A stretch of DNA of 64,000 nt, taken from positions 6,639 to 70,638 of the forward strand of contig CAYZWF010000002.1 of NCBI GenBank assembly GCA_964482135.1, read 5' to 3'. Every line of letters begins with the position of its first letter. Within the stretch, counting starts at the first letter, position 1. A program made the position numbers and the translations under genes. The notes under the pieces were generated by a model, which worked only from the letters and a program-made list of their open reading frames with translations, searched no databases and was not told where the DNA came from. This stretch comes from an uncultured Rhodospirillaceae bacterium (GTDB lineage Bacteria; Pseudomonadota; Alphaproteobacteria; UBA11136). Shown here piece by piece: positions 3,317 to 26,518 of the stretch.

Positions 3317-4936
3317 TCAGTGGCTGGTGCCCGAAGAGCGGGTGATCTTGTTGTAGACGTTGTATTTACCCGAGGGCTTGTTCATGGGTATCCGTTTCAC
3401 CTCTTCTAAAGTGGCGGCGTCGTAGACCACCAGCGCGCCGTCTTCCTCCCATATGCTGACCAGGGCGTAGCGGCCGTCGCGGGTGAATTCCACATGGGCG
3501 GCGGTCTTGCCCGGCGCCGGGCGCAGGGTCTTGACGATCTCCAGCGTTTTCTTGTCGATCACGTGGAGGGCGTCGCGGTTGGGGCCGAAGAAGACATCGG
3601 CCCAGGCATAGGGCGTGTTTTCGTGGCTGCGCATGAAAAAGCCCGGCCCCAGGGTCTCGATGCGCTTGACGGTCTCCCAGTTTTCCATGTCGATGACGCT
3701 GATCATGTTCTCCCGCAGATGGGGCGTGGCCATGACTTCCCTGCCGTCGTGCCGCCAGTAAATGCCGGAGCCGAGATGGGGCATGCCGTCAAGCGCCAAG
3801 TCGGCGATCTTTCTCCTGACATCGAGGTTATAGACCGCCCCGCCCTTGCCGTCGCGGGAGGCGCCGATGACCTCGGCATAGGCGGGATCAAAGAAAAAGT
3901 CATCGAGGTAATCCTCGAGCTTGATACGGCGCCGGGCGAAGGGCTGTTCCTCGACGACGATTCCTTCCACCTGGCCGCTACGGTAGCTGTGGACGAAGTT
4001 TCCATAGACCGGGGCGGCGTTTGGATCGTAGGAGAGTTCCCATACCTCCTTGAAGTCCTTAAGGGCGGCGATGAAGCTTTTACGCGGGGCCGCGTCGTAA
4101 ACCGCGCTCACCCGGGAGCTCGCGCCCTTGCCGTCATCGACGGAGATGACCCGGAACAGCGACAGATCGGCGGCGTTGAGGACCACCAGGCTATGGGGCA
4201 GGTAGTTGCCCACCATGACCCATTTCCCGTCCGATGAGACGGCGATATTGCGGGTATTGATGCCGGCGCGGATTTCGGCCACCGGCTTGAGGCCGTAAAG
4301 GTCGTATTTGCTGACCCAGCCGTCGCGCGAGCCGAGATAGACGAAACGGCCGTCGGGCGAATATTTGGCGCCGCCATGGAGGGCGAAGCGGGAAGGAAAA
4401 CGCCACAGGGGCTCGAAACTGTCGCCGTCGAGAATGGTGACGTGGTGATCGCCGGTCTCCACCACGGTGAACAGGTTCAAGGGGTCGGCGCCGTGAACGG
4501 GGGCCTCGGGCAGCCCGGCCACGGCGTTGTGGACCACATGAGTGGCGGCGATTTCGGTGCGGCCCCATTGCGGCAGGTGCGGAAGAGGGGTGTAGATCAA
4601 TTCCGTCAACGCCGCGATTTCGTCGGCGGAGAGCTTGCCGGAGAATCCCTGCATCTGGGTGGCGATGCGGCCCTCGGCGGTGACTTTGCGGGCTTCGTCC
4701 TTCTTTAGCCGTTTCAGGTTCTCCGGGAGCAGGGCCGGGCCTTCGCCGCCCAGCCTGTCGGAACCGTGGCATTCGCCGCAGTGGGTGGCGTAGAGGGCCT
4801 TTACATTGGAAGCGCCGTTGGGGGGGGCGTCGCCGGGAACGGCCTTGAGCGTGACTTCCGCTTTAACGGTGGCTGTAACGGTGGCGGGCAGGAGCCACGC
4901 CAGCACCGCCAGCAGGAGGCTAAATCGCGGCGGCAT
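3317..4936 (-). CDS. nirN: Cytochrome cd1-like protein NirN (c-heme domain plus 8-bladed propeller; dihydro-heme d1 dehydrogenase family)
   Basis: Signal peptide MPPRFSLLLAVLAWLL. Heme c motif CGECHG followed by a cd1 beta-propeller (VVETGDHHVTILDGDSFEP...). The 741-aa ORF in the track is an artefactual 5' extension; the real ATG is at 4936. Last gene after nirJ. Confidence 0.8.
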   Translation of the reverse strand: MPPRFSLLLAVLAWLLPATVTATVKAEVTLKAVPGDAPPNGASNVKALYATHCGECHGSDRLGGEGPALLPENLKRLKKDEARKVTAEGRIATQMQGFSGKLSADEIAALTELIYTPLPHLPQWGRTEIAATHVVHNAVAGLPEAPVHGADPLNLFTVVETGDHHVTILDGDSFEPLWRFPSRFALHGGAKYSPDGRFVYLGSRDGWVSKYDLYGLKPVAEIRAGINTRNIAVSSDGKWVMVGNYLPHSLVVLNAADLSLFRVISVDDGKGASSRVSAVYDAAPRKSFIAALKDFKEVWELSYDPNAAPVYGNFVHSYRSGQVEGIVVEEQPFARRRIKLEDYLDDFFFDPAYAEVIGASRDGKGGAVYNLDVRRKIADLALDGMPHLGSGIYWRHDGREVMATPHLRENMISVIDMENWETVKRIETLGPGFFMRSHENTPYAWADVFFGPNRDALHVIDKKTLEIVKTLRPAPGKTAAHVEFTRDGRYALVSIWEEDGALVVYDAATLEEVKRIPMNKPSGKYNVYNKITRSSGTSH

Positions 4937-6134
4937 GGCCGGTTTTGGCGGAGGCGGGAGTCTGCGCCGGTGTTTCAGTGAGTCCGATTTCGCCATCATC
5001 GAGGTAACAGCCGGGATCTTCGGCCCAGGGATCGTCCGTCGTCTGCAAGGCGCGGATACGGGTATTGCCGTTGCAGATGGCGAAATAGCCGCATTGGCCG
5101 CAACGCCCGCCGATCTGCCGGGGATGGCGCTTGAGTCCGGCCATGATGGGGTCGGAAACATCGCCCCAGATTTCTGAGAAGGGACGCTCGCGCACAGTAC
5201 CGAGGTCGTAATGCCACCAGAAGGTGTCGGGGTGCACATGGCCCTGGTTATCGATATTGGCCACGTTGACGCCCGACGAATTGCCGCCCCAGCGGATAAG
5301 GCCCTCATGGAGGTGTTTTTCGGCCTCGGGAAAACGCTCCCGCGCCCAATGCAGAAGATAGACGCCATCGGCGTCGTTATTGCCGGTGACGAATTCTTTC
5401 CCGCCATCGGCCTCCACGTCACGCCAGGCGGTCTCGAAGAGTAGGTCCATGGCTTGGCGCGTGGTCCCGAAAAAGGCGTCGTCGCCGCGGTTGCGGTTGC
5501 CGCGTCCGGCATAGTTGAGATGGGAGAGGTAGAATTTATCAATGTCCTCTTCGTCCATGAGGGCGAGCAGGCGCGGCAGGTCGGCGGCGTTGTCCTTGGT
5601 CATGGTGAAGCGGATACCCACCTTGATCCCGGCCTCGCGGCACAGGCGGATGCCCGCCAGCGAGGCGTCATAGGCGCCTTCCTTGCGCCGGAAACGGTCA
5701 TGGGTGGCGCCGATGCCATCCAAGCTGATCCCCACATAGTCGTACCCCACCCCGGCGATGGCGCCGATCATGTCAGGCGTGATGAGGGTGCCGTTACTGG
5801 AGAGCCCCACATAGAAGCCCATGTCCTTGGCGCGCTGGGAAATCTCGAAGATGTCGGGGCGCAGCAGGGGTTCGCCGCCGGAAAGGATGAGGACAGGCAC
5901 ACCGAAGGCCTTCAAGTCGTCCATGACGGCGGCCACTTCCCGGGTGCTGAGTTCGTCGGGGAAATCGGTGTCGGCGGAAATGGAATAGCAGTGGCGGCAG
6001 GTGAGGTTACAGCGCCGGATCAGGTTCCAGATCACCACAGGTCCAGGCGGGGTGGATGGGCCATTCCCCGAGGCGCGCGCGGGCGCCGCGCCGGGGCTGG
6101 CGATCTCGCGCATGAATTTGCTGATGCGGAACAT
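4920..6134 (-). CDS. nirJ: Radical SAM heme d1 biosynthesis protein NirJ
   Basis: Radical SAM CxxxCxxC (CNLTCRHC), SPASM-like C-terminal cysteines. Position between nirH and nirN. Confidence 0.85.
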   Translation of the reverse strand: MFRISKFMREIASPGAAPARASGNGPSTPPGPVVIWNLIRRCNLTCRHCYSISADTDFPDELSTREVAAVMDDLKAFGVPVLILSGGEPLLRPDIFEISQRAKDMGFYVGLSSNGTLITPDMIGAIAGVGYDYVGISLDGIGATHDRFRRKEGAYDASLAGIRLCREAGIKVGIRFTMTKDNAADLPRLLALMDEEDIDKFYLSHLNYAGRGNRNRGDDAFFGTTRQAMDLLFETAWRDVEADGGKEFVTGNNDADGVYLLHWARERFPEAEKHLHEGLIRWGGNSSGVNVANIDNQGHVHPDTFWWHYDLGTVRERPFSEIWGDVSDPIMAGLKRHPRQIGGRCGQCGYFAICNGNTRIRALQTTDDPWAEDPGCYLDDGEIGLTETPAQTPASAKTGHAAAI

Positions 6135-9734: not shown

Positions 9735-9882
9735 CCTTTTGTTGTTAGTGCGACTTAAGGTTAAAGTTCCATCGGTCCTGTTGTGGGCCCGGTTTAAAAT
9801 TTCGAACACGCCCGGAGATGACGGCGGAGGACTCCGGCTTGTTGTCCGCCGCCGCTAAACCCGCGCAACGCCATCTATGCAA

Positions 9883-9896
9883 TGTCACGGATGACA
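9883..9896. promoter_or_regulatory. Perfect 5-4-5 palindrome TGTCAcggaTGACA in the nirC/nirS divergent promoter region
   Basis: Read directly from the sequence. Located 74 nt upstream of the longest nirC start and about 250 nt upstream of nirS. It is not a canonical FNR (TTGAT-N4-ATCAA) or NnrR (TTGCG-N4-CGCAA) box. Confidence 0.3.
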
Positions 9897-10146
9897 AGGT
9901 AAGGGCGCACTATTCATAAAGGCAGCTAAGGTTAATCTACTTGGGGATCAAAAGCCTCTGTTTCTTCTGTGTTTTAATGCGGCATTTTGTCTCCGTTACC
10001 AATATGGATTTTATAGTAAAGTCCACGAATTGCCATACGCCCTTGATCTGTTTTGTTGTTGGATTTTGGTGTAGAGAGAACGATTCTGAGGTAGTCTAAG
10101 GACGGCCTTTTCCTCGAAGATTCCTATCAGTTAGGGAGATAACGTA

Positions 10147-11784
10147 ATGAGAAAATATATCTTAGCTGTGTCGGCGGTTGCCATGGCGGCGGGTCTTGCC
10201 ATGGGATCCTCGGCCCCGGCGATAGCTGCCGACAAGGCCGCTCCGACAATGTCGAAGGAAGACTTTGATGAGGCCAAGACCTTGTATTTCCAGAGATGCG
10301 CCGGTTGTCACGGAGTATTGCGCAAGGGAGCGACGGGAAAAAACCTGGAACCCGGTCCCTCGAAAAACAGTAAGGGCACTCTCGAACTCGGCCAGAAGCG
10401 TCTCGTAAAAATTATCACCCTCGGTACCGAGGGCGGCATGAACAACTTCGATGATATCTTCACCAAGGACCAGATCGCCAAGCTGGCGACCTATATCCAG
10501 CTGCCTCCTCCCGAGCCGCCGGAGATGTCCCTGGCGCAGATGAAGGAAAGCTGGAAGGTACACGTTAAGCCCGAAGACCTTCCCAAGAAGCCCCAACATA
10601 CCGGTAACTGGGAGAACTACTTCCTGGTCATCCTTCGTGACGCCGGCAAGATAGGGGTCATCGACGGCGACACCAAGGAAGTGGTGGCCAAGATCGACAC
10701 CGGCTACGCCATCCATGTGATTAAGGAATCCTCCGACGGCCGCTTCTGGTACACCCAGGGCCGTGACGGCAAGATGACGAAAATCGATCTGTGGATGGAC
10801 CCGCCGCAGGTGGTCGCCGAGGCCCGAGTCGCCTATGACGCCCGCGACGTGGCCGTTTCTCACTTCGGAGAATGGAAGGACAAATACGTGATCGGCGGTG
10901 GCTACTGGCCGCCTCACTTTGTCATTCTCGACGCCGAGACCATGGAGCCTCTTAAGGTAATCTCCACCCGTGGCGTCAACGTGGACGGTGAATATGTGGA
11001 GGAGGCGCGTGTGGCGGCTATTTACAACACGCCAGAGGCCCCGACCTGGATCGTCGCCGTCAAGGAGCTGGGTCAGCTGTGGCAGGTGGATTACAGCGAC
11101 ATCGACAATCTCCAGATTAACCAGATCGACAGCCACAAATTCCTCCATGACGGCTTCTTCGATCCTACCTTGCGTTATTTCCAGATCGCCGCCAACGCCT
11201 CCAACCGGATGGAGATCATGGATTCCATTGACCGTAAGTTCGTGGCCTCGATCGAAACCGGCAAGAAGCCTCATCCCGGCCCCGGCGCCAACTGGGTGGA
11301 TCCTAAATGTGGTCCGGTGGGCGGCACCGTACATCTGGGTGAGGGCAAGATGACCGCCTGGGGCAACGATCCCAAGGGCCATCCTGATCAGGCCTGGAAG
11401 GTTTGTTACAAGGCCGCCACCGACGGTCCGGGTCTGTTTATCCGCACCCATCCCAACGTGTCTTTCGTGGCCATGGATCAGACCAAGCATCCCGAACCGG
11501 AAGTTCAGCAGTCGATCAAGATTCTCGACAAGGAGACCCGGAAGATGATCAAGACCATCCGGGTTACCGAGCTGGAGAAAGCCGTCGCCGTCCATATCGA
11601 ATTCAACAAGGGCGGCAGCGAGATGTGGGTATCGGTCTGGGCCCGTGGCGGCAAAAAGGACTGGCTCAAGGGTGAAATCGTCGTTTACGACACCAAGACC
11701 CTTGAGGAAAAAACCCGGATTAAGAATCTTGAAACACCGACCGGCAAATTCAACGTCTATAACAGGATGCACCACAAGACGTGA
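10147..11784 (+). CDS. nirS: Cytochrome cd1 nitrite reductase NirS (copy 1)
   Basis: Signal peptide, heme c CAGCHG, then d1 propeller with conserved cd1 segments. 545 aa. Confidence 0.9.
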   Translation: MRKYILAVSAVAMAAGLAMGSSAPAIAADKAAPTMSKEDFDEAKTLYFQRCAGCHGVLRKGATGKNLEPGPSKNSKGTLELGQKRLVKIITLGTEGGMNNFDDIFTKDQIAKLATYIQLPPPEPPEMSLAQMKESWKVHVKPEDLPKKPQHTGNWENYFLVILRDAGKIGVIDGDTKEVVAKIDTGYAIHVIKESSDGRFWYTQGRDGKMTKIDLWMDPPQVVAEARVAYDARDVAVSHFGEWKDKYVIGGGYWPPHFVILDAETMEPLKVISTRGVNVDGEYVEEARVAAIYNTPEAPTWIVAVKELGQLWQVDYSDIDNLQINQIDSHKFLHDGFFDPTLRYFQIAANASNRMEIMDSIDRKFVASIETGKKPHPGPGANWVDPKCGPVGGTVHLGEGKMTAWGNDPKGHPDQAWKVCYKAATDGPGLFIRTHPNVSFVAMDQTKHPEPEVQQSIKILDKETRKMIKTIRVTELEKAVAVHIEFNKGGSEMWVSVWARGGKKDWLKGEIVVYDTKTLEEKTRIKNLETPTGKFNVYNRMHHKT

Positions 11785-11967: not shown

Positions 11968-13734
11968 ATGATTTCAGATAAATTTCGCTATTTTCTGACA
12001 AACCGGCTCGTCAAGTCGATCATCATGACGCCGGTTCGTTCCACGATTATCGGCGCGGCGGCCTTTTTCGCGATCGGAATCGTTTTCTGGGCCGGTCTGA
12101 ATGTGGCTATAGAATCCACCGATAATATGGAGTTCTGCATCGGCTGCCATGTGATGGAGAGCACCGTTTATCAGGAATATAAAAAGACTCCCCACTATCA
12201 GAATCGCACCGGAGTGCAGGCCACCTGTCCCGACTGTCACGTTCCCCGGCCCTGGCTCGACAGAGCCCTGCGCAAGCTGCGGGCCAGCAACGAGATATTG
12301 CACTGGATGTTGGGCAGCATAGACACGCCCGAAAAATTCGAGGCCAAACGCCTCACCCTGGCCAAGCATGTGTGGAAATCCATGAAGGAAACGGATTCCC
12401 GCGAGTGCCGCAACTGCCATTCCTGGGAAGCCATGAAGGGTGCAAAGCAGCAGCGCCGGGCGAGAAAACAGCATGAACTGGCGCTTATAGACAACCTGAC
12501 CTGTATTGATTGCCATAAGGGCATTGCTCACAGAGCCGTGCATAAGCTTCTCGATGATGACGAGGATTTCTACGACGGCAAGTCCGATCCACGTAAGCTC
12601 GATGTTCTTACCGCCGCCGAGGCCGCGGTCGCGGAGAAAGAAGAAGCTGCCGCTGCCGCGGCATCGGCGGAGGAAGCGCCCGTAGCCGAGGCGCCCGGCA
12701 AGGCGGAAGCCGCGGAAAGCACGCCCGCATCCGCACCCTCACCCACACCATCAGCAGGCGGCGAAGCAGCGGGCGGCGGACCTGCCTGGGGCAATATTCC
12801 GGGCCGCGATATCGTTGTCTTCTATCCGGGGCAGACCTCCATGGAGTGGATCCTCAAGGGGAGCGACCATGGCGGCGCGCGCGCCATCAAGAAACTGGGC
12901 GATCCCTGCGCCGAGTGCCATGAGGGTGAGCAGGATAAAATGGGCAGGATTCTGGCCAGCGGTGAGAAAGCCGAGGCTACGCCCATTCCCGGCAAACGCG
13001 GCCATATCAAGGTCAACGTCAAGGCCGCCCATGACGGCGAAAATCTCTACATGCATTTCCAATGGCCGGGAACCGAGCATACGCCGGCGCCCTTCGTGGA
13101 CGGCGGCAAGATGGACCCCGATAATCAGGTTAAGCTTGCCGTTATGTTCGATGACGGAAAGGTGGACGCTGCCGACAGCGCGGGCTGTTGGGTCACCTGT
13201 CATCACGATTCCCGCTATATGCCCGATCATCCTGACGCCGCCGCCGTCACCGCCGCGGGCGATCTCGCCAAACGGCTCGGTGCGGCCGACGGGATCACCA
13301 AGTATCTGAAGGAAACGCGCAGCGAAATCGAGATCAAGGGCAACGACGACAAGCCCCGTGGCGGTTGGGACAAGCTCAAGCCGGCATCCGAGATCGAGGA
13401 GCTGAAAGGTGCCGGGGCTTTCATGGACCTGATGCGCGTTAAGATCGGCGAGGGTAAATCGGAAAGCGGTTCCGTGCTGGAACATCGGGCCATGAGCGGG
13501 GAGTCGGGCATCACCTTCAGCGGAGGCCTTGCCGACGGCGTCTGGTCCGTGACCGTGACCCGCCCCCTCAAGGCGGACAAGCCCGGCGGCGTCACCATCG
13601 AGCCGGGCAAGCTCTATACGGTGGGGATCGCCATTCACGACGATTACACCCTGGCCCGGTTCCACCATGTTTCACTGGAATACTCGCTGGGACTCGACAA
13701 CGAAGAGGCTGGCATTAATGCCATCAAGATGTAA
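11968..13734 (+). CDS. nirT: NapC/NirT-family membrane tetraheme cytochrome c fused to a C-terminal extra heme-binding domain (EB_dh/DOMON-like)
   Basis: N-terminal TM helix then four CxxCH motifs (CIGCH, CPDCH, CRNCH, CIDCH). An Ala/Pro-rich linker follows. The about 330-aa C-terminal domain carries CAECH and a CWVTCH motif. Confidence 0.75.
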   Translation: MISDKFRYFLTNRLVKSIIMTPVRSTIIGAAAFFAIGIVFWAGLNVAIESTDNMEFCIGCHVMESTVYQEYKKTPHYQNRTGVQATCPDCHVPRPWLDRALRKLRASNEILHWMLGSIDTPEKFEAKRLTLAKHVWKSMKETDSRECRNCHSWEAMKGAKQQRRARKQHELALIDNLTCIDCHKGIAHRAVHKLLDDDEDFYDGKSDPRKLDVLTAAEAAVAEKEEAAAAAASAEEAPVAEAPGKAEAAESTPASAPSPTPSAGGEAAGGGPAWGNIPGRDIVVFYPGQTSMEWILKGSDHGGARAIKKLGDPCAECHEGEQDKMGRILASGEKAEATPIPGKRGHIKVNVKAAHDGENLYMHFQWPGTEHTPAPFVDGGKMDPDNQVKLAVMFDDGKVDAADSAGCWVTCHHDSRYMPDHPDAAAVTAAGDLAKRLGAADGITKYLKETRSEIEIKGNDDKPRGGWDKLKPASEIEELKGAGAFMDLMRVKIGEGKSESGSVLEHRAMSGESGITFSGGLADGVWSVTVTRPLKADKPGGVTIEPGKLYTVGIAIHDDYTLARFHHVSLEYSLGLDNEEAGINAIKM

Positions 13735-14837: not shown

Positions 14838-16616
<1,779 letters not shown>

Positions 16617-16694
16617 TCAATAGTGACATGCTTCAATTACCCTCACGTTGAGATGCCCGATGATAAGCTCGATAAGGAAAAGGGGGAAAGCAGA

Positions 16695-16717
16695 AATATG
16701 TATATAAAATACATGTT
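16695..16717. promoter_or_regulatory. NsrR-like (Rrf2 family) operator AATATGTATATAAAATACATGTT in the nirS2/nirI divergent promoter region
   Basis: 11-1-11 imperfect palindrome. Only one position departs from the gamma/beta-proteobacterial NsrR consensus as recalled (AAnATGnATTTnAAATnCATnTT). Located 112 nt upstream of nirS2 and 206 nt upstream of nirI. Confidence 0.5.
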
Positions 16718-16922
16718 ATATTATAGAAGGAAGTAATATTTCCATTCCAGGCTTACCGCTAGCCTATTAAAAAGAATGGCTCTAAAGAGTTGGAGCTGCG
16801 TCAAATTGTCGCGGAGTGATTTGTCGCAGGAGGAAGTTGTTCTGATCCCCTACACATTAAACAACATATGGTCTAGTTAGCGTTATTTTTATATACTTTT
16901 ATAATAAAGTTTAGGCAATCGT

Positions 16923-19169
16923 ATGTCTTGTGAATACAAAAGGTTTACATGCATAACATTTCTGTTTGTGGCCTGTTTGTTTTGCCGGGCCATCGCAGCC
17001 CCGGCCCACGCCGATGAAGGTGCGGCGGATTTTTTCGAGCCAAGGATTCTTTCGCGCATCTTTCCCGCCGCCGACGGCTTCGGCCCCCTTCAGGGTAATC
17101 CTCCCGCAATTGCCGTCTATCGTGGCGACAAGCAGCTTGGGTATGTCTTTTCCAGCCGCCAGGTGGTGGGGTCCACGGGGTTTTCAGGCAAGCCCCTGGA
17201 TATCGTCATTGGCCTTGACCTCGAAGGAAAGATTGCCGGGCTGGAGTTGCGCGAACATCACGAGCCGATTCTGGTGATCGGCATCAGGGACGCGGACCTG
17301 GAACGTCATATGCAGCAATATGTGGGGTTTCACGTGGCCACCCGGGTAACGCCGGTTGCCGACAAGCGTAAGGAAACGGCACCGGAAACGGCACCGGAAA
17401 CGGTATTGGAAACGGCAACGGAAGAAGCCGCGGTCGATATCCTCAGCGGCGCTTCCATCACCACCGCGGTTGTCAATGATGTGATCATGCGCGCCTCACG
17501 GGCAATGGCGCGTTCGCGGGGAATCCTGCCGCCCCTCGAGGATGATGGACGTGGCGTGGTGGATTATGACCGCTTCGAAAGCAAGGATTGGAGCGCCCTG
17601 CTCAGGGAAGGCGCCATAGCTGTTCTGCGCCTCTATAACAGTGACGTGTCGCAGGCCTTCGCCGCCCAGGGGGTGCCTGCCAAATCAATAAAACGAATGA
17701 AGCAACAGTTGGGAGAACCTAAGGGCCGTTTCATCGATCTTTATGCGGCCCTGGCCACGCCGGCGCTGATTGGCCGCAATCTCTTGGGGGATCATCTCTT
17801 CGGCCGTCTCTCTTCCGATCTGGAGCCGGGAGCGCAGATGATCCTGATCGCCGGTGACGGGCGCTATTCCTTCAAGGGAACGGCCTATGTGAAGAACATC
17901 GTCTTTGACCGTATTCAGATTATTCAAGGAGAGAACACCTTCAAGTTTAATACCGGGGATCATCGGCGCGTAGAGTCTCTGGCCGTGGAGGGGGCTCCCA
18001 TATTGCGGGAACTGGGCCTGTTCACCCTTTCCCCGGGAAGCGGATTCGATCCGGCGCAGCCCTGGCGCCTGGAGATTCTCGTCGTCAGATCCTATACGGA
18101 TGCGAAGGGAAAGGAGATAGAGGATTACGCAGCATTCACCTTGCCCTACCGCTTGCCCGGGGAGCTGATAGAGCGCGCCGCCGGCGTGGAAGACGTAGCG
18201 GCGGAACGGGCATCCTGGCCTCTTTGGCAACATGCCTGGGCCGACAACCAGGGAAAGATCGTCGTCCTTAGCGTGGCTTTGCTGATCCTTCTTAGCGCCC
18301 TGGTTTTCCAGGATTCCATGGAGCGCCGTCCGCGATTCTACCGTTTTTTCCGTCTCGGTTTCCTGGTGTTCACCACAGTATGGATTGGCTGGTATGCCGG
18401 GGCTCAGCTTTCGGTTATTAACGTGATTACCTTCTTGCAGTCTTTGGTCACCGCCTTCAGCTGGGAATTCTATCTGCTCGGCCCCCTGATCTTCATCCTT
18501 TGGTGCTTCGTGGCCGTGGCCCTGTTGTTCTGGGGGCGCGGCGTCTATTGCGGCTGGCTGTGCCCCTTCGGGGCCTTGCAGGAACTTCTCAACGAGGTGG
18601 CCCAGAAGGTCCGGGTGCCGCAGATAAATATCCCTTTCACGGTCCAGGAACGGCTGTGGCCCATCAAATACATGCTGTTTCTTGGCCTTCTCGGGCTGTC
18701 TTTCTATTCTATGCGTGAGTCTGTGGTGCTGAGCGAGGTGGAGCCCTTCAAGACCGTGTTCTCGCTTAACTTCCAGCGTGCTTGGCCTTTCGTGGCGTAC
18801 GCCGTTGGTCTGTTGGTGGCGGGGCTGTTCATCGAGCGTTTCTTCTGCCGCTATCTTTGTCCCCTGGGCGCGGCGCTGGCGGTTCCGGCGCGCGTGCGCA
18901 TGTTCGAATGGCTGAAACGGCGCCCCCAATGCGGCCGGGAATGCCGTATCTGCGCCCAGGAATGTACGGTGGGAGCGATCCACCCCAACGGCCAGATCAA
19001 TCCCAACGAATGCATTTACTGTATGCATTGCCAGGTACTTTATTACGATGATCACCGCTGTCCGCCCATGATCAGCCGCCGCGAACGCAAAGAGACCTAC
19101 CGGGCGGCACGGGAGGGGGAAAACGGGGACGACCCCGCAAGAGAAGGAGGCCATGTGGATGCGGTCTGA
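16923..19169 (+). CDS. nirI: NosR/NirI-family membrane-bound FMN-binding iron-sulfur regulator
   Basis: Periplasmic FMN-binding domain, about 6 TM helices, and C-terminal CX3CP and ferredoxin cysteine clusters (YCGWLCPFG, CRYLCPLG, CGRECRICAQEC). Divergent from nirS and followed by an ApbE gene, as for Paracoccus nirIX. Confidence 0.8.
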   Translation: MSCEYKRFTCITFLFVACLFCRAIAAPAHADEGAADFFEPRILSRIFPAADGFGPLQGNPPAIAVYRGDKQLGYVFSSRQVVGSTGFSGKPLDIVIGLDLEGKIAGLELREHHEPILVIGIRDADLERHMQQYVGFHVATRVTPVADKRKETAPETAPETVLETATEEAAVDILSGASITTAVVNDVIMRASRAMARSRGILPPLEDDGRGVVDYDRFESKDWSALLREGAIAVLRLYNSDVSQAFAAQGVPAKSIKRMKQQLGEPKGRFIDLYAALATPALIGRNLLGDHLFGRLSSDLEPGAQMILIAGDGRYSFKGTAYVKNIVFDRIQIIQGENTFKFNTGDHRRVESLAVEGAPILRELGLFTLSPGSGFDPAQPWRLEILVVRSYTDAKGKEIEDYAAFTLPYRLPGELIERAAGVEDVAAERASWPLWQHAWADNQGKIVVLSVALLILLSALVFQDSMERRPRFYRFFRLGFLVFTTVWIGWYAGAQLSVINVITFLQSLVTAFSWEFYLLGPLIFILWCFVAVALLFWGRGVYCGWLCPFGALQELLNEVAQKVRVPQINIPFTVQERLWPIKYMLFLGLLGLSFYSMRESVVLSEVEPFKTVFSLNFQRAWPFVAYAVGLLVAGLFIERFFCRYLCPLGAALAVPARVRMFEWLKRRPQCGRECRICAQECTVGAIHPNGQINPNECIYCMHCQVLYYDDHRCPPMISRRERKETYRAAREGENGDDPAREGGHVDAV

Positions 19170-20241
19170 CACGAATAATTCTGCCCGGCAGGCAAAGGTT
19201 TCCCGCAGGCGGGCAATCGGGGTTTTCGCCGCCACGGCGGGGCTGCCGCTGATGATGTCGGTTCCCGGCGTGGCGCGGGCCGCCGGACGGAACGGGTCTC
19301 TCTTTGAATGGAACGGCACGGCGCTGGGCGCCAGTTCGCGGATGATCCTCTCGCACCCCGACCGCGAGGCGGCGCGGCGTCTTGTGGTCATGTGCCGGGA
19401 TGAAATCGAGCGGCTGGAACGGATTTTCAGCCTCTACCGTTCTTCTTCCGAACTTTCCCGTCTTAACCGGGGCGGCCGGCTTGATGCGCCTTCCCATGAC
19501 ATGGTGCGTCTGTTGAGCGCCTGCCGCCGTTTCGGTGATCTCAGCGGCGGCGCCTTCGATGTGACCGTGCAACCCTTGTGGCGGCTCTATGCCGATCACT
19601 TCGCCGCCCATCCCGGAGATGAAAACGGCCCTGATGCCAGGGCGCTGGAGCGGGTCCGGGCGCTGGTGGATTATCGCGGCGTGGAGGTGACGGCGCGGCG
19701 CATTTCCTTCGCCCGCAAGGGCATGGCGGTGACCTTGAATGGGATCGCCCAGGGCTATATCACCGACCGCGTGGCCGAATTATTGCGCGCCGAGGGCATG
19801 GACAATGTACTCATCCAGCTTGGCGAGACCCACGCCCTTGGCGGCCATCCCCAAGGCCGGGCCTGGCGCCTGGGCCTGACGGCGGCGGCGGGAACCCATG
19901 GCGAGGGGGCTGGCCATGACGAAGCGACTGGGGAAAATGTGGTGGAACTGCGTAACCGCGCCCTGGCCACCTCCGCGCCCCACGGATTTACCTTCGACCG
20001 CGAGGGACGCTTTCATCATCTGATCGACCCTGATTCCGGGAACAGTCCTCAAGCCGTGGCCGGCGTTTCCGTGACCGCGCCCCGGGCCGCCGATGCCGAT
20101 GCCCTGTCCACGGCGCTCTCGGTTATGGAGGCGCGGCGCGGGGCACAGATGATGGAGAGGGTGGGAGACGCCACGGCATGGGTAGTTCTGGCCGATGGCG
20201 GGGAAATAACCCTGGGCCGGGCACGAGGATCGAAAGCGTAG
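19153..20241 (+). CDS. nirX: ApbE-family FAD:protein FMN transferase (NirX-like)
   Basis: Tat signal SRRRAIGVFAATAG. ApbE motifs (VTLNGIAQGYITD). Overlaps the nirI 3' end by 17 nt. Confidence 0.8.
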   Translation: MWMRSDTNNSARQAKVSRRRAIGVFAATAGLPLMMSVPGVARAAGRNGSLFEWNGTALGASSRMILSHPDREAARRLVVMCRDEIERLERIFSLYRSSSELSRLNRGGRLDAPSHDMVRLLSACRRFGDLSGGAFDVTVQPLWRLYADHFAAHPGDENGPDARALERVRALVDYRGVEVTARRISFARKGMAVTLNGIAQGYITDRVAELLRAEGMDNVLIQLGETHALGGHPQGRAWRLGLTAAAGTHGEGAGHDEATGENVVELRNRALATSAPHGFTFDREGRFHHLIDPDSGNSPQAVAGVSVTAPRAADADALSTALSVMEARRGAQMMERVGDATAWVVLADGGEITLGRARGSKA

Positions 20242-20266: not shown

Positions 20267-20662
20267 TCAGCCGTGAAGTTTGTGCAGGGGGGCGTCCATC
20301 TTCCTGAAATGGGTGGAAAACCACCCCCGCAGTTCGTCGGCGAACTGGTCCTCGGACTGGAAATAGGTGCCGTCCTCGTGGCGGTCCATGATGTCACGGA
20401 TTTGATCGAGAAGGTATTCGTGTTCCTTTTTGTGGGCGTTGAAGCCGCTATAGTTTTCGTCGCGCATGGTCTTTTCCTCGAGCGCGAAGTGGAGGGAGAT
20501 ACGGGCGAAAAGCTCACCCAGAAAATCGCCGACCGATTCGCGGGAGCCCTGGGACATCATTTCGCCGTGGAGTTCGTTGATAAGCGAAATCAACTGTTCA
20601 TGTTCGTAATCCACATGGGGGATTCCGGTCTTGAACTCCTCTTTCCATTCGATCAGCGTCAT
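20267..20662 (-). CDS. Bacteriohemerythrin (second copy); last gene of the HCO operon
   Basis: Hemerythrin ligand motifs (HVDYEHEQL, HFALEE, HKKEHEYL). Confidence 0.8.
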   Translation of the reverse strand: MTLIEWKEEFKTGIPHVDYEHEQLISLINELHGEMMSQGSRESVGDFLGELFARISLHFALEEKTMRDENYSGFNAHKKEHEYLLDQIRDIMDRHEDGTYFQSEDQFADELRGWFSTHFRKMDAPLHKLHG

Positions 20663-20682
20663 GGCGACCCCCGGTCGTTTTG

Positions 20683-21201
20683 TTATTTTATGACAAAGTT
20701 CGCCGATGGGGTGGAAAAAACCACGGCCAGATTGCGGGTCGGTTCCAGATCTACCTCCTGGGTGGTCTCATAATCGAAACCCTCTGCGCGGCCGCTGTCG
20801 CGCATGCGCATATCCAGGCGGTGATGCCCGGCGGGCACGGTGATGCGTTCGTAAAAATAGGATGGTCCGTCGCTCGACAGGCCGGAGGGTGGCTGTTCGC
20901 GGCTGAAAATAAGTTCTCCATTGAGAAGAATCTCCACCAAGACGGGGTGGCGCTCGCGCGGGCAGAGCTGTAGCGCGCGCCGGGTGGTGCGGGTCTCCTT
21001 GATGCCGGCGAACTGGCGGATGTCGCATTCGCCTTTGTGTTTTCCACCGTGACTGATGGAAAGTTTCATCACCGCCGTGTCTGGGGCGAGCCGTATATAG
21101 GCCGGGCTGTTGGAGAAATATCCCAACACCACCGCCAGGGCCAGATAGGCCACGCCCTGTCCGAGGAATTTCATCGCTCTAGACATGAGGCTACGAGGCA
21201 T
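20683..21201 (-). CDS. Hypothetical membrane-anchored protein (one N-terminal TM helix)
   Basis: ORF with hydrophobic N-terminus (GVAYLALAVVLGYF). No recognisable motif. Overlaps the upstream gene by 11 nt, so probably co-transcribed. Confidence 0.5.
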   Translation of the reverse strand: MPRSLMSRAMKFLGQGVAYLALAVVLGYFSNSPAYIRLAPDTAVMKLSISHGGKHKGECDIRQFAGIKETRTTRRALQLCPRERHPVLVEILLNGELIFSREQPPSGLSSDGPSYFYERITVPAGHHRLDMRMRDSGRAEGFDYETTQEVDLEPTRNLAVVFSTPSANFVIK

Positions 21202-22786
21202 GGGGGTGCTCCTTTTCTCCGTCCCCCTCTTTCGCGGCGGATGTTTTCATGGCCATTAAATGATCGCGGAATGCCTTCAGGCGGTCGGCCAGTTCCCCGG
21301 GTTCGGTGGGGGCGAGCCAGGCGGTGGCGATACGTTCGCGCGGCACCCGGTCGCGCAGATAGGGATCCCGCTTGCCGCCGATTCTCAACTCCGTCCATTC
21401 CACACCGAGCCGGTGAAAACACTCGTTCTCGCGACAGCCGGCAAGCATGATGCCGTCGGCGTGGCCGCGGGTGAGGACGTAATCCATAAAGGCGGGCGGC
21501 AGCATGGCGATGCAGGGAAGGCTGAACACGGCGACGTCGGGTGAGGCCAGTTTGCCGATATCGTTGCCATGGTCGCAGCCGAAAATAACGATCTTCGATT
21601 CGCCTTCGAGACGCGCAAGAGCCTGATCCACGTTCTTGCGAAGCTTGTCCAGGGTGAATTGGGGCAGGTCGATACCGGTCACCAGTTCCGTTGAGGTGCG
21701 GAAGGGCGTGGAGGCGGGACAGGACCCCACGCAGATGCCGCAGGCGGTGCATAGATCGCTCGAAACAAGGGCAATGGAGGGGAAGGGGCGTCCGTCGTCG
21801 CGCGGCCCCATCACCACCGCCCCATAGGGGCAGTCCTCGAAACAACGGGTGCAGCCGTTGCAATTGGCGGCATCCACCACCGCCGGGCTGGAGCGTTTGA
21901 AGGGCGGCGCCCAGGGCAGGATGCTGAGCACGGTGCTGGTTCCCACCAACAGCAGCCAGACCCATCCCGCCGACCATATCTCGATCAGTGGATAGAATCC
22001 GAGATAGAACCAGTCGAGGCTGACCTTTTCCACCACCATGCCGAGATCAGCCGGGGGGTGACTCAGCGCCGGTTTATAGAGCGCGAGCAGGAAAAGCATG
22101 CCCAGGGTACCGGCGGCCAGCGCCAGGGGCGGGTTGACCCTGGGACGGCTGATGCGCAGCAGGTGAATCCACATGGCAAACAGCAGGAACAGGGGCAGGG
22201 CGATGTGGAGGAAGACGAGCAGCGAGAAGAAACGGTCGCCGAGGCTGCCTCTGGTCAGGAAATTATTGGCGATGGGCTCGCCGAACAGGGGCAGCCAGTC
22301 CATCCATTCGAAGGTGGCCACGGCGATATACTGGGCCAGCTGGTCCCATACCAGCCAATAGCCGTTGATGCCGGAAGCAAAGGCAAGCCAGAGGATGGGG
22401 ATACCGCTGAACCAGGAAAACCAGCGTACGCTGCGGTAACGGTCGAGGACGAACTCGCGCATCAGATGCAGCATCATGGTAATCACCAGCGCATCGGAGG
22501 CATAGCGGTGGAGGCTGCGCATGATTCCGCCCAGATACCACTGTTCCACGGTGAGATACTCGATGGAGTCGTAGACGCCATTGATGCTGGTCTCGAAGAC
22601 GATATAGAGGTAGATGCCGGTGGCGGCGACGATCCAGAAATAGAAGTAGCCCAGCGCGCCGAGCTGGGTCAGGGGGTTGAGCTTGGGTCCGAAGGCCGCG
22701 TCGAACCAGCCTTCGACCTGCATGAGTCCGTTTTGCGCGGTCCGCCGCAAAGGGTGGGGCTGGGAAGGTGAGGCATTTCCGTTCAC
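21191..22786 (-). CDS. Triple-domain fusion: cytochrome b/b6-like transmembrane domain + 2x[4Fe-4S] ferredoxin + MvhD/FlpD-like domain
   Basis: N-terminus resembles cytochrome b (GGIMRSLHRYASDALVITMMLHLM vs [23 protein letters not shown]). Middle has CNGCTRCFEDCP and CTACGICVGSCP. C-terminus matches the methyl-viologen-reducing hydrogenase delta-subunit family (IVIFGCDHG ... GIMLAGCRENECFH). ATGA overlap with the SCO1 stop. Confidence 0.7.
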   Translation of the reverse strand: MNGNASPSQPHPLRRTAQNGLMQVEGWFDAAFGPKLNPLTQLGALGYFYFWIVAATGIYLYIVFETSINGVYDSIEYLTVEQWYLGGIMRSLHRYASDALVITMMLHLMREFVLDRYRSVRWFSWFSGIPILWLAFASGINGYWLVWDQLAQYIAVATFEWMDWLPLFGEPIANNFLTRGSLGDRFFSLLVFLHIALPLFLLFAMWIHLLRISRPRVNPPLALAAGTLGMLFLLALYKPALSHPPADLGMVVEKVSLDWFYLGFYPLIEIWSAGWVWLLLVGTSTVLSILPWAPPFKRSSPAVVDAANCNGCTRCFEDCPYGAVVMGPRDDGRPFPSIALVSSDLCTACGICVGSCPASTPFRTSTELVTGIDLPQFTLDKLRKNVDQALARLEGESKIVIFGCDHGNDIGKLASPDVAVFSLPCIAMLPPAFMDYVLTRGHADGIMLAGCRENECFHRLGVEWTELRIGGKRDPYLRDRVPRERIATAWLAPTEPGELADRLKAFRDHLMAMKTSAAKEGDGEKEHPHAS

Positions 22787-23661
22787 GGGGAGCCGTCCTT
22801 GGAACGCCGCCGCCGGGATCGGACTAGGAAAATCAGTGTGCCGCCAATACAGATTCCGCCGATGGCCATGCCCACGAACAGGGAATAATCAAAACGATAG
22901 CGGCCGCTCGCCGGATCGTAGACGGTGCAAAACAGTTTCACCCGGTTGGCGATCCCCTCGAAGCTGGTGAAAGAGGCGCCGGTTCCGTAAATGAGGTTTT
23001 TGAGTGGCTCCACCAGATGGGGGGGGCTGAAATCCTCACCGTATATCTGGTTGGTAACACGTCCTTCGGCATCGGCCACCGTGACCTGGCTCAGATGGTC
23101 GAAGCCTTTGGGAGATTCCTTGAAGATGAAGCCCAATTCCTTGCCCAAGGCGGCGATGGTCGGGGCATCGGCGCTGAGGAAGAGCCATCCCTCGTCCCCG
23201 ACGCCGTGACTTTTTGCGAATTGGCCCATGCGTTGGGGCGTATCCGTGGGCACGTCGAAGCCGATACTGACAACATGGAAGGAGTCGGCGCCCATGGCTT
23301 CACGCGCCGTCTCCACGGCCCGCCCCAGGGTCTCGGTGATGAGGGGGCAGGCATGGGCGCAACTTGAATAGATGAGGCTGATGACCAGGGGTGTGCCACG
23401 GAAATCGGAAAGCCGCACGGTTTTTCCCGACGCGTCGGTAAAGGTGGCATCGCCGATCACCCTGCCGACGGCGGCCTGGCTGATGGCAAGGGCGTTCTCG
23501 GAATCGAAATCGTTTTCATCTTCATGTGTGGGCGACATATGGGTATTGCCGCCGTGCCCCGCCAGCCCCGGCATGGGGATCAGGCCGAGGAAAAGAAATG
23601 CAGCCGCAAGAATCGATTTCACGTGGCGTCTCCCAGGGATGAGTATATGCAGAGATACCAA
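22783..23661 (-). CDS. SCO1/SenC-family copper chaperone (thioredoxin-like, CxxxCP) with C-terminal TM helix
   Basis: Signal/TM region, CxxxC motif SSCAHACP, and a conserved His (DHLSQV region). Confidence 0.75.
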   Translation of the reverse strand: MVSLHILIPGRRHVKSILAAAFLFLGLIPMPGLAGHGGNTHMSPTHEDENDFDSENALAISQAAVGRVIGDATFTDASGKTVRLSDFRGTPLVISLIYSSCAHACPLITETLGRAVETAREAMGADSFHVVSIGFDVPTDTPQRMGQFAKSHGVGDEGWLFLSADAPTIAALGKELGFIFKESPKGFDHLSQVTVADAEGRVTNQIYGEDFSPPHLVEPLKNLIYGTGASFTSFEGIANRVKLFCTVYDPASGRYRFDYSLFVGMAIGGICIGGTLIFLVRSRRRRSKDGSP

Positions 23662-23719
23662 GAGCGGTGCGACTTATGTCGCACCGCTCTCAGTATACAG
23701 GATTATGGCGCTTGAGGCT

Positions 23720-25417
23720 TTAGCTGAGGCCCCAGGTTTCCGCCAGGTACTTCCAGTTGACGAAGTAATAGAGGACGAAGGTAACCAGGAACACCATGGC
23801 CAGGGCAAAGGTTCCCGGAACCTCCAGATGGTCGGCGCTGCCGTACTGCGCCGCCGCGGTCGTGGGCGGTGCTTCGGCTGCCGGCGCGGGTGCGGCTTCG
23901 CCCTTGGTCTTGCCAAAGAGCAGAGAGCCAACCACCACGATGATGAACATGGCGCCTCCCAGAGAGGCAACCACGGCGCTGACGCCGTTGAGACCCAACA
24001 TGAGATAGGCGGCGCCGGGGAAGTCCATGCTCATGGCGGCGTCGCTGAAGGTAATATCCCAGTGCCGCCGGGGCACGCCCAGAGTGCCGGCTCCCATCAT
24101 GAAGACGGAAAGTCCCGTCACTCCGATGGCGAAGACGTAGGGTTGCCACTGCGCCATTTTCGGGAACAGGATTTCCTTGCGGAAGATAAGCGGCACCAGA
24201 AGATAGGTGACGGCCATGAAGGCCAGGGTCGTTCCCGCCACTACGGTGCCGTGGAAATGGCCCGGCACATAAAGGGTGTTGTGCATGATCAGGTTGATTT
24301 GTTCGGTGCCGAGAATGACACCGGTGATGCCACCCAGGAACCCGAACATGACCAGCGAGAGGAACATGCCGGAAAAGGCGGGATTGCCCCATGGCGCCTT
24401 GCGCAGCCATTCGAACAGGCCCTTGTTGAAGCCCTTTTTACGCTGCGCCGCCTCGATTGAGCCAGGCACCGTAAGGCCGTGGATCATGCTCGCCAGCACC
24501 GCCAGATACATGGCGTAGCTGGTGTTGAAGATCTTGTATTCCGAACTCAAGCCCGGCTCCACCAGCAGGTGATGGACGCTGCCCAGTTGCAGGAACAGGA
24601 TATAGAGAAGGAAAGCCGTGCGGCTGACCTTCTCGGACAGGGGCTTGGCGCCGAAGAGCACGGCGGCGATCAGGTACCATACCGCCACATGGGCCGAGAC
24701 GTTGATCTGTTGCGAGGAATGGCCCATGGCCCACCACACCACCTTGTACATGAGGGGGTCGATGTAGCTGACGAGACCCACCGACCACATCAGGGTGGGG
24801 ATGAGAATGATAGCGCCCGAGGCGATGGTGAAAACGGCGATGATGGCCGCAGTTATGGCGCCGAAAGTGACCAGCGGGACCGAACCCTCGTAGGTCTTTT
24901 CATCCTTGGCTATGACCAGGGTGCCGAAGAAACAGCAACAGCCCAGCAGGGCGCCTACGGCGAACAGGATGATCCCGAGATAGAACAGGGGATCGGCCTG
25001 CATGGGCACGTAAGAGGTGAACATGACGCTGGATTCGCCCATCAGCACGACAACGTTGGTCATGGCGGCGCCCACCAGCATCAGCCAGAAGCCGACCCAG
25101 GCCAGTTTAGGCGCTGCCAGACGGCAGCCCAGCAGAATAGCGGACGCAAAGTAGAGTACCGCCATTTCGAAGAAGATCATCCACACCAGCAACACGTCGA
25201 GACCGTGTGCGGTCAAGGCCAGATAGAACCAGTCGTCGGGCAGGAAATGCACCGCCGGCCAGCGGGTCAGCGCCACGGAGAGACCGAACAGTCCGCCGAC
25301 GAGCAGGAAGACCACGGCGACAACGGCGTTGGCCTTGATCAGCTTTTCGGCGGGAAGATGGACCTTGAGCCCGGTATCGGGGCAGGTGCGAAATTGTGTG
25401 TCGTTTGCCATGTCCAT
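23720..25417 (-). CDS. Heme-copper oxidase superfamily subunit I (B-family-like; candidate CuA-type NO reductase catalytic subunit)
   Basis: 12+ TM helices. CuB/heme ligands present: helix VI GH (WAMGHSSQQ), helix VII HH (SVHHLL), helix X HxH (HFHGT). The cross-link Tyr is absent at H+4 (Q instead). 565 aa, like Thermus ba3 subunit I. Confidence 0.75.
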   Translation of the reverse strand: MDMANDTQFRTCPDTGLKVHLPAEKLIKANAVVAVVFLLVGGLFGLSVALTRWPAVHFLPDDWFYLALTAHGLDVLLVWMIFFEMAVLYFASAILLGCRLAAPKLAWVGFWLMLVGAAMTNVVVLMGESSVMFTSYVPMQADPLFYLGIILFAVGALLGCCCFFGTLVIAKDEKTYEGSVPLVTFGAITAAIIAVFTIASGAIILIPTLMWSVGLVSYIDPLMYKVVWWAMGHSSQQINVSAHVAVWYLIAAVLFGAKPLSEKVSRTAFLLYILFLQLGSVHHLLVEPGLSSEYKIFNTSYAMYLAVLASMIHGLTVPGSIEAAQRKKGFNKGLFEWLRKAPWGNPAFSGMFLSLVMFGFLGGITGVILGTEQINLIMHNTLYVPGHFHGTVVAGTTLAFMAVTYLLVPLIFRKEILFPKMAQWQPYVFAIGVTGLSVFMMGAGTLGVPRRHWDITFSDAAMSMDFPGAAYLMLGLNGVSAVVASLGGAMFIIVVVGSLLFGKTKGEAAPAPAAEAPPTTAAAQYGSADHLEVPGTFALAMVFLVTFVLYYFVNWKYLAETWGLS

Positions 25418-25423
25418 GTCCCC

Positions 25424-25966
25424 CTATTTATCAACCACGACAATTTTGCCCAGCATGGTGTGGTGGCCAATGCCGCAAAATTCATTGCAAACGATACCAA
25501 ATTCCCCGCTCTCGGTCGGCGTGATCGTTGCCACCATGTCGTATCCGGGATGAATCTGTAAATTGAGATTGACCGGTTGCAGGGAAAATCCGTGCAGCCA
25601 GTCCAGCGAGGCGAGATGCAGACGGTAGGTTTCCCCTTTTTGCAGTTCGAAAACGGGCCACCACTCCCACAGGCGGGCGATCATATAGATGTCGCTGCCG
25701 GGCGGGGGACTCACCACCGGCACGTCGGTCTCGCCCCAGGTGCCGACGGTGTATTCGGCCGCCGCGGCTTCCGCCTTCGCCGCGTAAACGTCGGAATTGA
25801 TCCGGTAGCCTTCGGTGGGTGGGTTCTGCTGCCCTTCCAGATGCCAGTAAGGCATCATGAAAAACATGATGATGCACCAGATCAGGCCGATGCCGATCCA
25901 CAGGACTTCGTTGCGTCCGATGGGCTCGTTCCACCAGATACGTTGTTCGGGAGGTGAGATGGCCAT
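25424..25966 (-). CDS. Heme-copper oxidase subunit II with CuA centre (no cytochrome c domain)
   Basis: Single TM helix plus cupredoxin with a complete CuA motif H...CNEFCGIGHHTM. 180 aa, comparable to ba3 subunit II. Confidence 0.8.
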   Translation of the reverse strand: MAISPPEQRIWWNEPIGRNEVLWIGIGLIWCIIMFFMMPYWHLEGQQNPPTEGYRINSDVYAAKAEAAAAEYTVGTWGETDVPVVSPPPGSDIYMIARLWEWWPVFELQKGETYRLHLASLDWLHGFSLQPVNLNLQIHPGYDMVATITPTESGEFGIVCNEFCGIGHHTMLGKIVVVDK

Positions 25967-25985
25967 GTCTCTTTACCTTTCGCGG

Positions 25986-26144
25986 CTAGTTGGCGAGGGG
26001 GATCGAGATGACTTCCATAATCCCCCAGATTAAATAGAAGACGGTGGGCATAACGATGCCTATGCAAAGCAGCAGAAAGGGATTGTCGAGAAGCTGTTGC
26101 ATGAAGGGAATCTGGTCCCCCTTGCCCCCCTGATCATCCACCAT
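25986..26144 (-). CDS. Small single-TM protein (52 aa), candidate oxidase subunit IIa-like
   Basis: Not in the ORF track (under 60 aa). Hand-translated as MVDDQGGKGDQIPFMQQLLDNPFLLLCIGIVMPTVFYLIWGIMEVISIPLAN. AAGGAG Shine-Dalgarno 7 nt upstream. Lies directly upstream of subunit II, as cbaD does in the Thermus cbaDBA operon. Confidence 0.5.
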   Translation of the reverse strand: MVDDQGGKGDQIPFMQQLLDNPFLLLCIGIVMPTVFYLIWGIMEVISIPLAN

Positions 26145-26308
26145 GAGTTTTCTCCTTCAGTAGCAACGATGCTGTATTGGTGAGGCGTGAAAGTAGCAGA
26201 TTAAGTACAACAAATGGAAGGGTGTAGATTTCCGCTTACGTTCCGTAGCGGCAAAATGTCACACATTGGAAAGTCTGAAGAGCGGGGGGAGGCGCTAAGG
26301 AGCGGGGG

Positions 26309-26497
26309 TTACATGTAGTCCGGGGCCAGCGCCCGGATCACGGCGAAGCTGCTCACGGCAAGCGTCAGGATGATGAAGAAGAAGAAGATCGCGCGGTATT
26401 GGAAGCGCCGCCCCGCCATGACCTCGGCGCGGTCGAGAAGGCGGTCGGAGATCACGTAAATGATGATACCGGCTACGGTGAAGGCGATGAATTCCAT
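26309..26497 (-). CDS. Possible small two-TM membrane protein (62 aa)
   Basis: ORF with two hydrophobic segments and a GGAG ribosome-binding site. No homology basis. An imperfect hairpin (26234-26253) follows. Confidence 0.3.
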   Translation of the reverse strand: MEFIAFTVAGIIIYVISDRLLDRAEVMAGRRFQYRAIFFFFIILTLAVSSFAVIRALAPDYM

Positions 26498-26518
26498 GTG
26501 GTGATCTCCGTTTGTTTC

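Follow-up and report, generated by a model that had tools for sequence, protein, structure and literature searches.

What represses, or activates, the second cytochrome cd1 nitrite reductase gene of an uncultured alphaproteobacterium is the question raised by an AT-rich intergenic region in the 64-kb stretch of DNA analyzed here (the window), in which a 23-bp palindrome had been read as an operator for an NsrR-type repressor. Judged from the DNA sequence, we consider this reading moderately probable. The motif match, its rarity and specificity, the conserved block in which it lies and an adjoining -10 element all speak for it, whereas the backing that an nsrR gene or a second site would have given is missing from the 81.5 kb assembled around the palindrome. 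The genes and sequence elements at issue are as follows.

14838 to 16583, minus strand: nirS2, encoding a cytochrome cd1 nitrite reductase of 581 aa (Pfam and solved structures), the likely regulated gene
16584 to 16922: divergent nirS2/nirI intergenic region, 339 bp, 37.5% G+C, without an FNR/NNR/DNR-type box
16695 to 16717, no strand: candidate NsrR-type operator, the 23-bp 11-1-11 inverted repeat AATATGTATATAAAATACATGTT, sole strong match in 64 kb
16697 to 16715: 19-bp core of the candidate operator, 22.05 bits
16923 to 19169, plus strand: gene for a NosR/NirI-family membrane flavo-iron-sulfur protein of 748 aa, divergent from nirS2, a possible second target
19153 to 20241, plus strand: ApbE-family gene (NirX/NosX-like), overlapping the end of nirI

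The NirS2 protein has cytochrome c and D1 domains and scores 857 bits against the solved cd1 nitrite reductases of Paracoccus and Pseudomonas; it is 46% identical to the product of the second copy, nirS1 (10147-11784). The name nirI for the divergent gene is reasonable on synteny, given that the true nosR is located elsewhere, next to nosZ and just left of the window, and that its product is only 42% identical to the NosR/NirI-family protein. Co-transcription of the ApbE-family gene with nirI is probable. Extension of the contig adds housekeeping genes rightward, and nosRZDFYL together with a 306-aa ORF leftward, where all assemblies end. The contigs of several independent samples stop alike at L170 ~20647-21620, which is ~6.6 kb left of window position 1, and this shared end point suggests a repeat or variable region there; the 306-aa ORF that precedes the contig end is divergent from nosR and has no Pfam match. 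Downstream of nirS1, positions 11968-13734 (plus strand) encode a 588-aa fusion of a NapC/NirT tetrahaem cytochrome to an ethylbenzene-dehydrogenase-like (EB_dh) domain, after which come a cupredoxin and then a bacteriohemerythrin. On the minus strand, positions 20267-25966 form an operon for a very divergent heme-copper oxidase, with a 565-aa COX1-family subunit that scores only 73 bits against CtaD, a 180-aa CuA-type subunit II-like protein, an SCO1/SenC-like protein, a 531-aa cytochrome b + 4Fe-4S + FlpD fusion, a 172-aa unknown protein and a bacteriohemerythrin. Because canonical norCB is absent from the window, this operon may encode a non-canonical NO reductase.

The palindrome is present exactly at the predicted coordinates, with its edge 112 nt from the nirS2 ATG at 16583, in an intergenic region whose predicted length of about 340 bp and AT-richness (against ~60% G+C for the window) are borne out by measurement. 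Between the arms of the 11-1-11 near-palindrome, AATATGTATAT and AAATACATGTT, 9 of 11 positions can pair, and the palindrome is perfect within the inner 6-5-6 core, ATGTAT-ATAAA-ATACAT. A recount also returns the single mismatch that the original prediction had claimed relative to an NsrR 23-mer consensus, AAnATGnATTTnAAATnCATnTT, and nothing else in the 64 kb matches that consensus at three or fewer mismatches (0.03 matches expected). The 23-bp form of the motif used for comparison is AAnATGyATTTnAAATrCATnTT. The published NsrR consensus is gATGyAT-N5-ATrCATc (PMC1274295), and the only perfect ATGYAT-N5-ATRCAT match in the window is the core of the site, ATGTAT-N5-ATACAT. Using a symmetrized 19-bp weight matrix built from the 91 unique NsrR sites in the supplementary table of the same paper (PMC1274295), we obtain for the site a score of 22.05 bits, which corresponds to the 63rd percentile of the leave-one-out scores of these 91 published sites (median 20.1), with the runner-up 19-mer in the window at 8.3 bits. 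All 18 positions besides the first contribute positively to this score, the first of the 19 being T/G in place of the usual G/C. As the NsrR motif is itself AT-rich, the intergenic region was simulated with its own dinucleotide statistics. Of 20,000 such composition-matched regions, 7 contain a perfect core and none contains a 23-mer with one mismatch or fewer, and a score of at least 22.05 bits is reached in a fraction of 2e-5 of 200,000 simulated 339-bp regions when the site is masked in fitting the model. The site therefore resembles the NsrR consensus far beyond chance, even for AT-rich DNA. A second palindrome in the same region, CTGCGTCAAAT-N12-ATTTGTCGCAG at 16796-16829, is paired at 10 of 11 positions and partly retained in the metagenome-assembled genome (MAG) from the Black Sea described below; its RNA fold is non-significant (z = -1.6).

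The matrix is also specific when applied to comparable DNA. A scan of 149 other nir and nos loci (2.25 Mb) gives six matches of at least 13 bits and none of at least 21 bits. The sole two matches of at least 17.7 bits (20.8 and 17.8 bits) flank an nsrR gene in Bradyrhizobium sp. Oc8, the product of which belongs to Rrf2 by Pfam and is 47% identical to E. coli NsrR, and in locus L139 another NsrR homologue has a match of 13.2 bits immediately before it. High matrix scores in such DNA hence track nsrR, and the two strong canonical sites in Bradyrhizobium imply that the canonical motif is in use in the Alphaproteobacteria. These two sites are at 4383-4401 and 5808-5826 of locus L035, where nsrR is ~4 kb from nosR. 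NsrR homologues do exist in this class: among 79 more distant nosR loci of reference genomes, nine alphaproteobacterial ones have an NsrR homologue within 10 kb.

The position of the site relative to candidate promoter elements may be of the kind expected for a repressor, and the following features bear on this point.

16720 to 16725, minus strand: TATAAT, a perfect -10-like hexamer facing nirS2, 2 bp from the operator and identical in the Black Sea MAG
16744 to 16749, minus strand: weak -35-like TGGAAT, 18 bp upstream of TATAAT, 3/6 matches, retained in the Black Sea MAG (locus L004)
16705 to 16710, plus strand: -10-like TAAAAT facing nirI, inside the operator, a weak candidate with a poor -35 (GGGAAA) and a 15-bp spacer
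16676 to 16742: best-conserved intergenic block, 1 substitution per 67 bp relative to the Black Sea MAG, holding the operator and TATAAT

Taking TATAAT as the -10 element would place the transcription start of nirS2 at ~16713. The operator would then span about -4 to +19, where a bound repressor classically blocks transcription, so that a repressor-type geometry is plausible. An alternative promoter closer to nirS2, TTGAAG-15-TAAAAT (16636-16610), would put the site near -103 instead; this is an untypical position for a repressor and counts against the NsrR reading.

We also compared the window with its relatives. Many marine metagenome assemblies contain identical contigs. Of 185,579 species representatives, the only close genome is 'Alphaproteobacteria bacterium BS150m-G7', the NirI of which is 94% identical, all other NirI matches having at most 47% identity; protein searches show the same gap, with a cluster of at least 90% identity and the next at 78% among the matches listed. 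BS150m-G7 is a MAG from the Black Sea redoxcline that has been described as an unclassified alphaproteobacterial complete denitrifier (PMC8067304). Its version of the site, AATATATATATAAAATACATGTT, scores 18.9 bits (44th percentile of known sites) and differs by a single change from G to A. Adenine ranks second in frequency at that position, with 10% of known sites, and is the base found in NsrR sites of Bacillus subtilis and Nitrosomonas. For comparison, third codon positions of nirS2 are 16% different between the window and this MAG, and the 82 bp adjoining nirI (16841-16922) are 46% diverged, as against the one substitution in 16676-16742. Because the constraint covers all 67 bp of that block, conservation cannot single out the operator. 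Beyond this pair, an NsrR-like site is absent from all 76 usable upstream regions of 80 nirS relatives (65-78% NirS identity), which limits the support from conservation to two closely related genomes, and none is seen in 16 metagenomic relatives that have the divergent nirI/nirS layout, for which the best score is 4.7 bits.

These same relatives differ from the window lineage in another respect. The original prediction had contrasted the palindrome with the FNR/NNR box that model denitrifiers carry between nirS and nirI, and this contrast extends to closer company: a perfect TTGA-N6-TCAA between nirI and nirS is present in 11 of the 16 relatives that share the layout and absent from the window lineage. 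Boxes of this type also occur in many other nirS relatives, ~50-105 nt upstream of the start codon. Between 16580 and 16930, neither TTGAT-N4-ATCAA nor TTGCG-N4-CGCAA is found at up to two mismatches, and TTG-N8-CAA is absent altogether. No FNR-type box emerges from scans of 9735-10146 (nirC/nirS1), 16584-16922 and 25967-26518 (upstream of the heme-copper oxidase operon), or on reading by eye upstream of the true nosR (L170 20457-20646), and the lineage may lack the FNR/DNR/NnrR class of regulator for denitrification. At 16623-16636, 46 nt from the ATG of nirS2, there is a degenerate FNR/CRP-like box, GTGACATGCTTCAA, which has decayed further in the Black Sea MAG; it may be what is left of the box still present in relatives. 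Set against the 11 relatives that have the box, its absence here gives the palindrome the appearance of a lineage-specific replacement.

No gene for an NsrR-type regulator is found nearby. Using tblastn with Rrf2 and FNR query sequences, we find no gene of either family in the window, in the close MAG locus or in both contig extensions (81.5 kb), which agrees with the earlier statement that the window holds no NsrR gene. Scanning these 81.5 kb with the matrix recovers the nirS2 site and no second site of at least 8.4 bits. The regions before nirS1 and the true nosR-nosZ are covered by this result, as is the one before the heme-copper oxidase operon, where the best match is 7.5 bits; hmp, nnrS, ytfE/dnrN, hcp and norB are not recognized among the annotated products of the same 81.5 kb. 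A separate search for a motif shared by the four denitrification promoter regions of this organism yields only 11/12 word matches at chance level, among them one NsrR-like half-site, AATATGGATTT, upstream of nirS1. This half-site is the left flank of a palindrome, TGGATTTTA-TAG-TAAAGTCCA at 10001-10025, ~120-140 nt upstream of nirS1; the flank looks like a single NsrR half-site, yet the full 19-mer scores low.

The main rival to the NsrR reading is that the palindrome is ordinary AT-rich promoter DNA, composed of overlapping -10-like hexamers, an upstream element or the site of a nucleoid protein such as IHF, and that its resemblance to an NsrR operator is coincidental because the NsrR motif is itself AT-rich and palindromic. 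Several observations fit this idea. The intergenic region has 37% G+C, several -10-like hexamers and several overlapping near-palindromes, for example TATAAAATACATGTTATATTATA at 16703-16725; an IHF-like 13-mer can be fitted with two mismatches; conservation reaches beyond the repeat to the whole 67-bp block; and neither regulator gene nor second site turns up in 81.5 kb. The simulations and the specificity test nevertheless argue against it, since only 2 in 100,000 composition-matched regions attain the observed score, nothing in 2.25 Mb of comparable loci scores equally while the nearest scores lie beside nsrR genes, and 18 positions, all but the first, score positively. We therefore regard coincidence as unlikely.

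If the palindrome is a real operator, it might still serve a different regulator, either another Rrf2 protein or a dimeric factor from outside that family that prefers similar half-sites, in which case the signal would be something other than NO. The lack of a local nsrR within 81.5 kb would fit, as would the T/G in place of the usual G/C at position 1 of 19, and diverged NsrR motifs are known in the Alphaproteobacteria, such as TGGTAT-N7-ATACCA in Rhodobacter capsulatus (published table, PMC1274295), so that motif and family are not rigidly tied. Against this stand the setting, an NO-making nitrite reductase being typical of the NsrR regulon, and the poor fit of the other regulators for which we compared consensus motifs (Fur, Zur, ArgR, IscR, Irr, CRP, FNR, LexA, TyrR, IHF and NarL). 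Fur misses 9 positions, Zur 8, ArgR 7, type 2 IscR 11 and FNR 4 of 10 specified positions; all of these motifs do worse than NsrR, the long ones missing at least seven positions and the short ones matching no better than AT-rich DNA would by chance. On this evidence another regulator is distinctly improbable. That the palindrome acts in RNA rather than in DNA, as a hairpin in a 5' leader or as a terminator, would be consistent with the 9-bp stem that a plus-strand transcript can form (-6.4 kcal/mol, z = -2.7). On the nirS2 strand, however, the hairpin reaches only -3.3 kcal/mol (z = -1.6), the AU-rich stem lacks the U-tract signature of a terminator, and the best Rfam hit, at E = 0.89, is far under the threshold of its family, which leaves a role in RNA very remote indeed.

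Returning to the NsrR reading, the mechanism that we propose would involve an NsrR-type repressor, an Rrf2-family dimer with an NO-sensitive iron-sulfur cluster that would be encoded elsewhere in the genome. As long as the cluster is intact, the dimer would occupy the 11-1-11 repeat, and because this repeat lies against the -10 element of nirS2 and contains the -10-like hexamer of nirI-nirX, binding would block RNA polymerase at one or both promoters. Nitrosylation of the cluster by NO would then take the repressor off the DNA, permitting expression of nirS2 and probably also of nirI-nirX. Which protein binds, where transcription starts, in which direction regulation works and that NO is the signal are inferred here, and relief of repression by NO is taken over from the action of NsrR elsewhere; on this analysis nirS2 is probably switched on by nitric oxide. 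A tentative extension of the idea, which we regard as possible though doubtful, is that this oxygen-minimum-zone/redoxcline lineage has exchanged FNR-type (NNR/DNR) control of the nirI/nirS promoter for NsrR-type control, making one nirS paralogue an NO-triggered feed-forward switch through a swap of regulator and site like that proposed for Neisseria but on a cd1 enzyme. If the operator is real, one nirS copy would stay off until NO is present, which bears on the timing of NO and N2O release, and control of the NO-producing step would become visible in an abundant, uncultured denitrifier of marine low-oxygen waters. An alphaproteobacterial cd1-type nitrite reductase would also join the NsrR regulon.

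The site has the same 19/23-bp inverted repeat as the NsrR operators of Gamma- and Betaproteobacteria and Bacillus (E. coli ytfE/hmp, Bordetella nnrS, Legionella glbN, Bacillus hmp), and differs at 3 of 19 positions from that of Geobacillus (G. stearothermophilus, G. kaustophilus; GATGTATTaAAAATACATg) and at 5 of 19 from that of Legionella (GATGTATTTcAAATACATC). It departs from the published NsrR set in having T rather than G/C at the outer position, and in its target, no nirS gene being among those of that set. Known or predicted NsrR sites have been published for Neisseria, Chromobacterium and Nitrosomonas at nirK/aniA, norB and nosR (PMC1274295). At Neisseria aniA, Nitrosomonas europaea nirK and Chromobacterium violaceum nirK, a predicted or demonstrated NsrR site likewise precedes an NO-producing nitrite reductase, and the distance to the start codon is similar, at -112 to -117 for Neisseria aniA and -114 to -132 for the window site. 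Those targets, however, are copper enzymes (nirK) whereas the enzyme here is a cytochrome cd1 (nirS), and at positions 4 and 16 the window site has G/C as against T/A in the motif of Neisseria.

A precedent for a cd1 enzyme exists in Thermus thermophilus, in which deletion of nsrR activates PnirS, so that NsrR represses the gene for cd1 nitrite reductase (PMC5748679). Thermus belongs to a distant phylum, however, and its nsrR is inside the nir-nor cluster, whereas the window lineage has no nsrR within 81.5 kb. Among the Alphaproteobacteria, NsrR of Magnetospirillum gryphiswaldense is reported to act as a repressor that binds at the promoters of nap, nirT, norC and nosZ (PMC11014258). Although this is an alphaproteobacterial NsrR too, the reported motifs are very degenerate and the main conclusions of that paper are disputed by a 2026 study (PMC12774639), which makes the precedent a weak one. 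Control of nitrite reductase genes by NsrR is already known, and the understanding of how NsrR acts is unchanged by the present site. Saunders et al., in 1999, are said to have described a divergent nirI-nirX / nirS layout in Paracoccus denitrificans. That layout is like the one found here, with nirS divergent from a NosR-family and then an ApbE-family gene, but the Paracoccus promoter has an NNR (FNR-type) box, whereas the window region has an NsrR-like palindrome instead and no TTGA-N6-TCAA. The one less ordinary feature of this locus is that, at a conserved nirI/nirS promoter, an FNR-type box seems to have given way to an NsrR-type operator.
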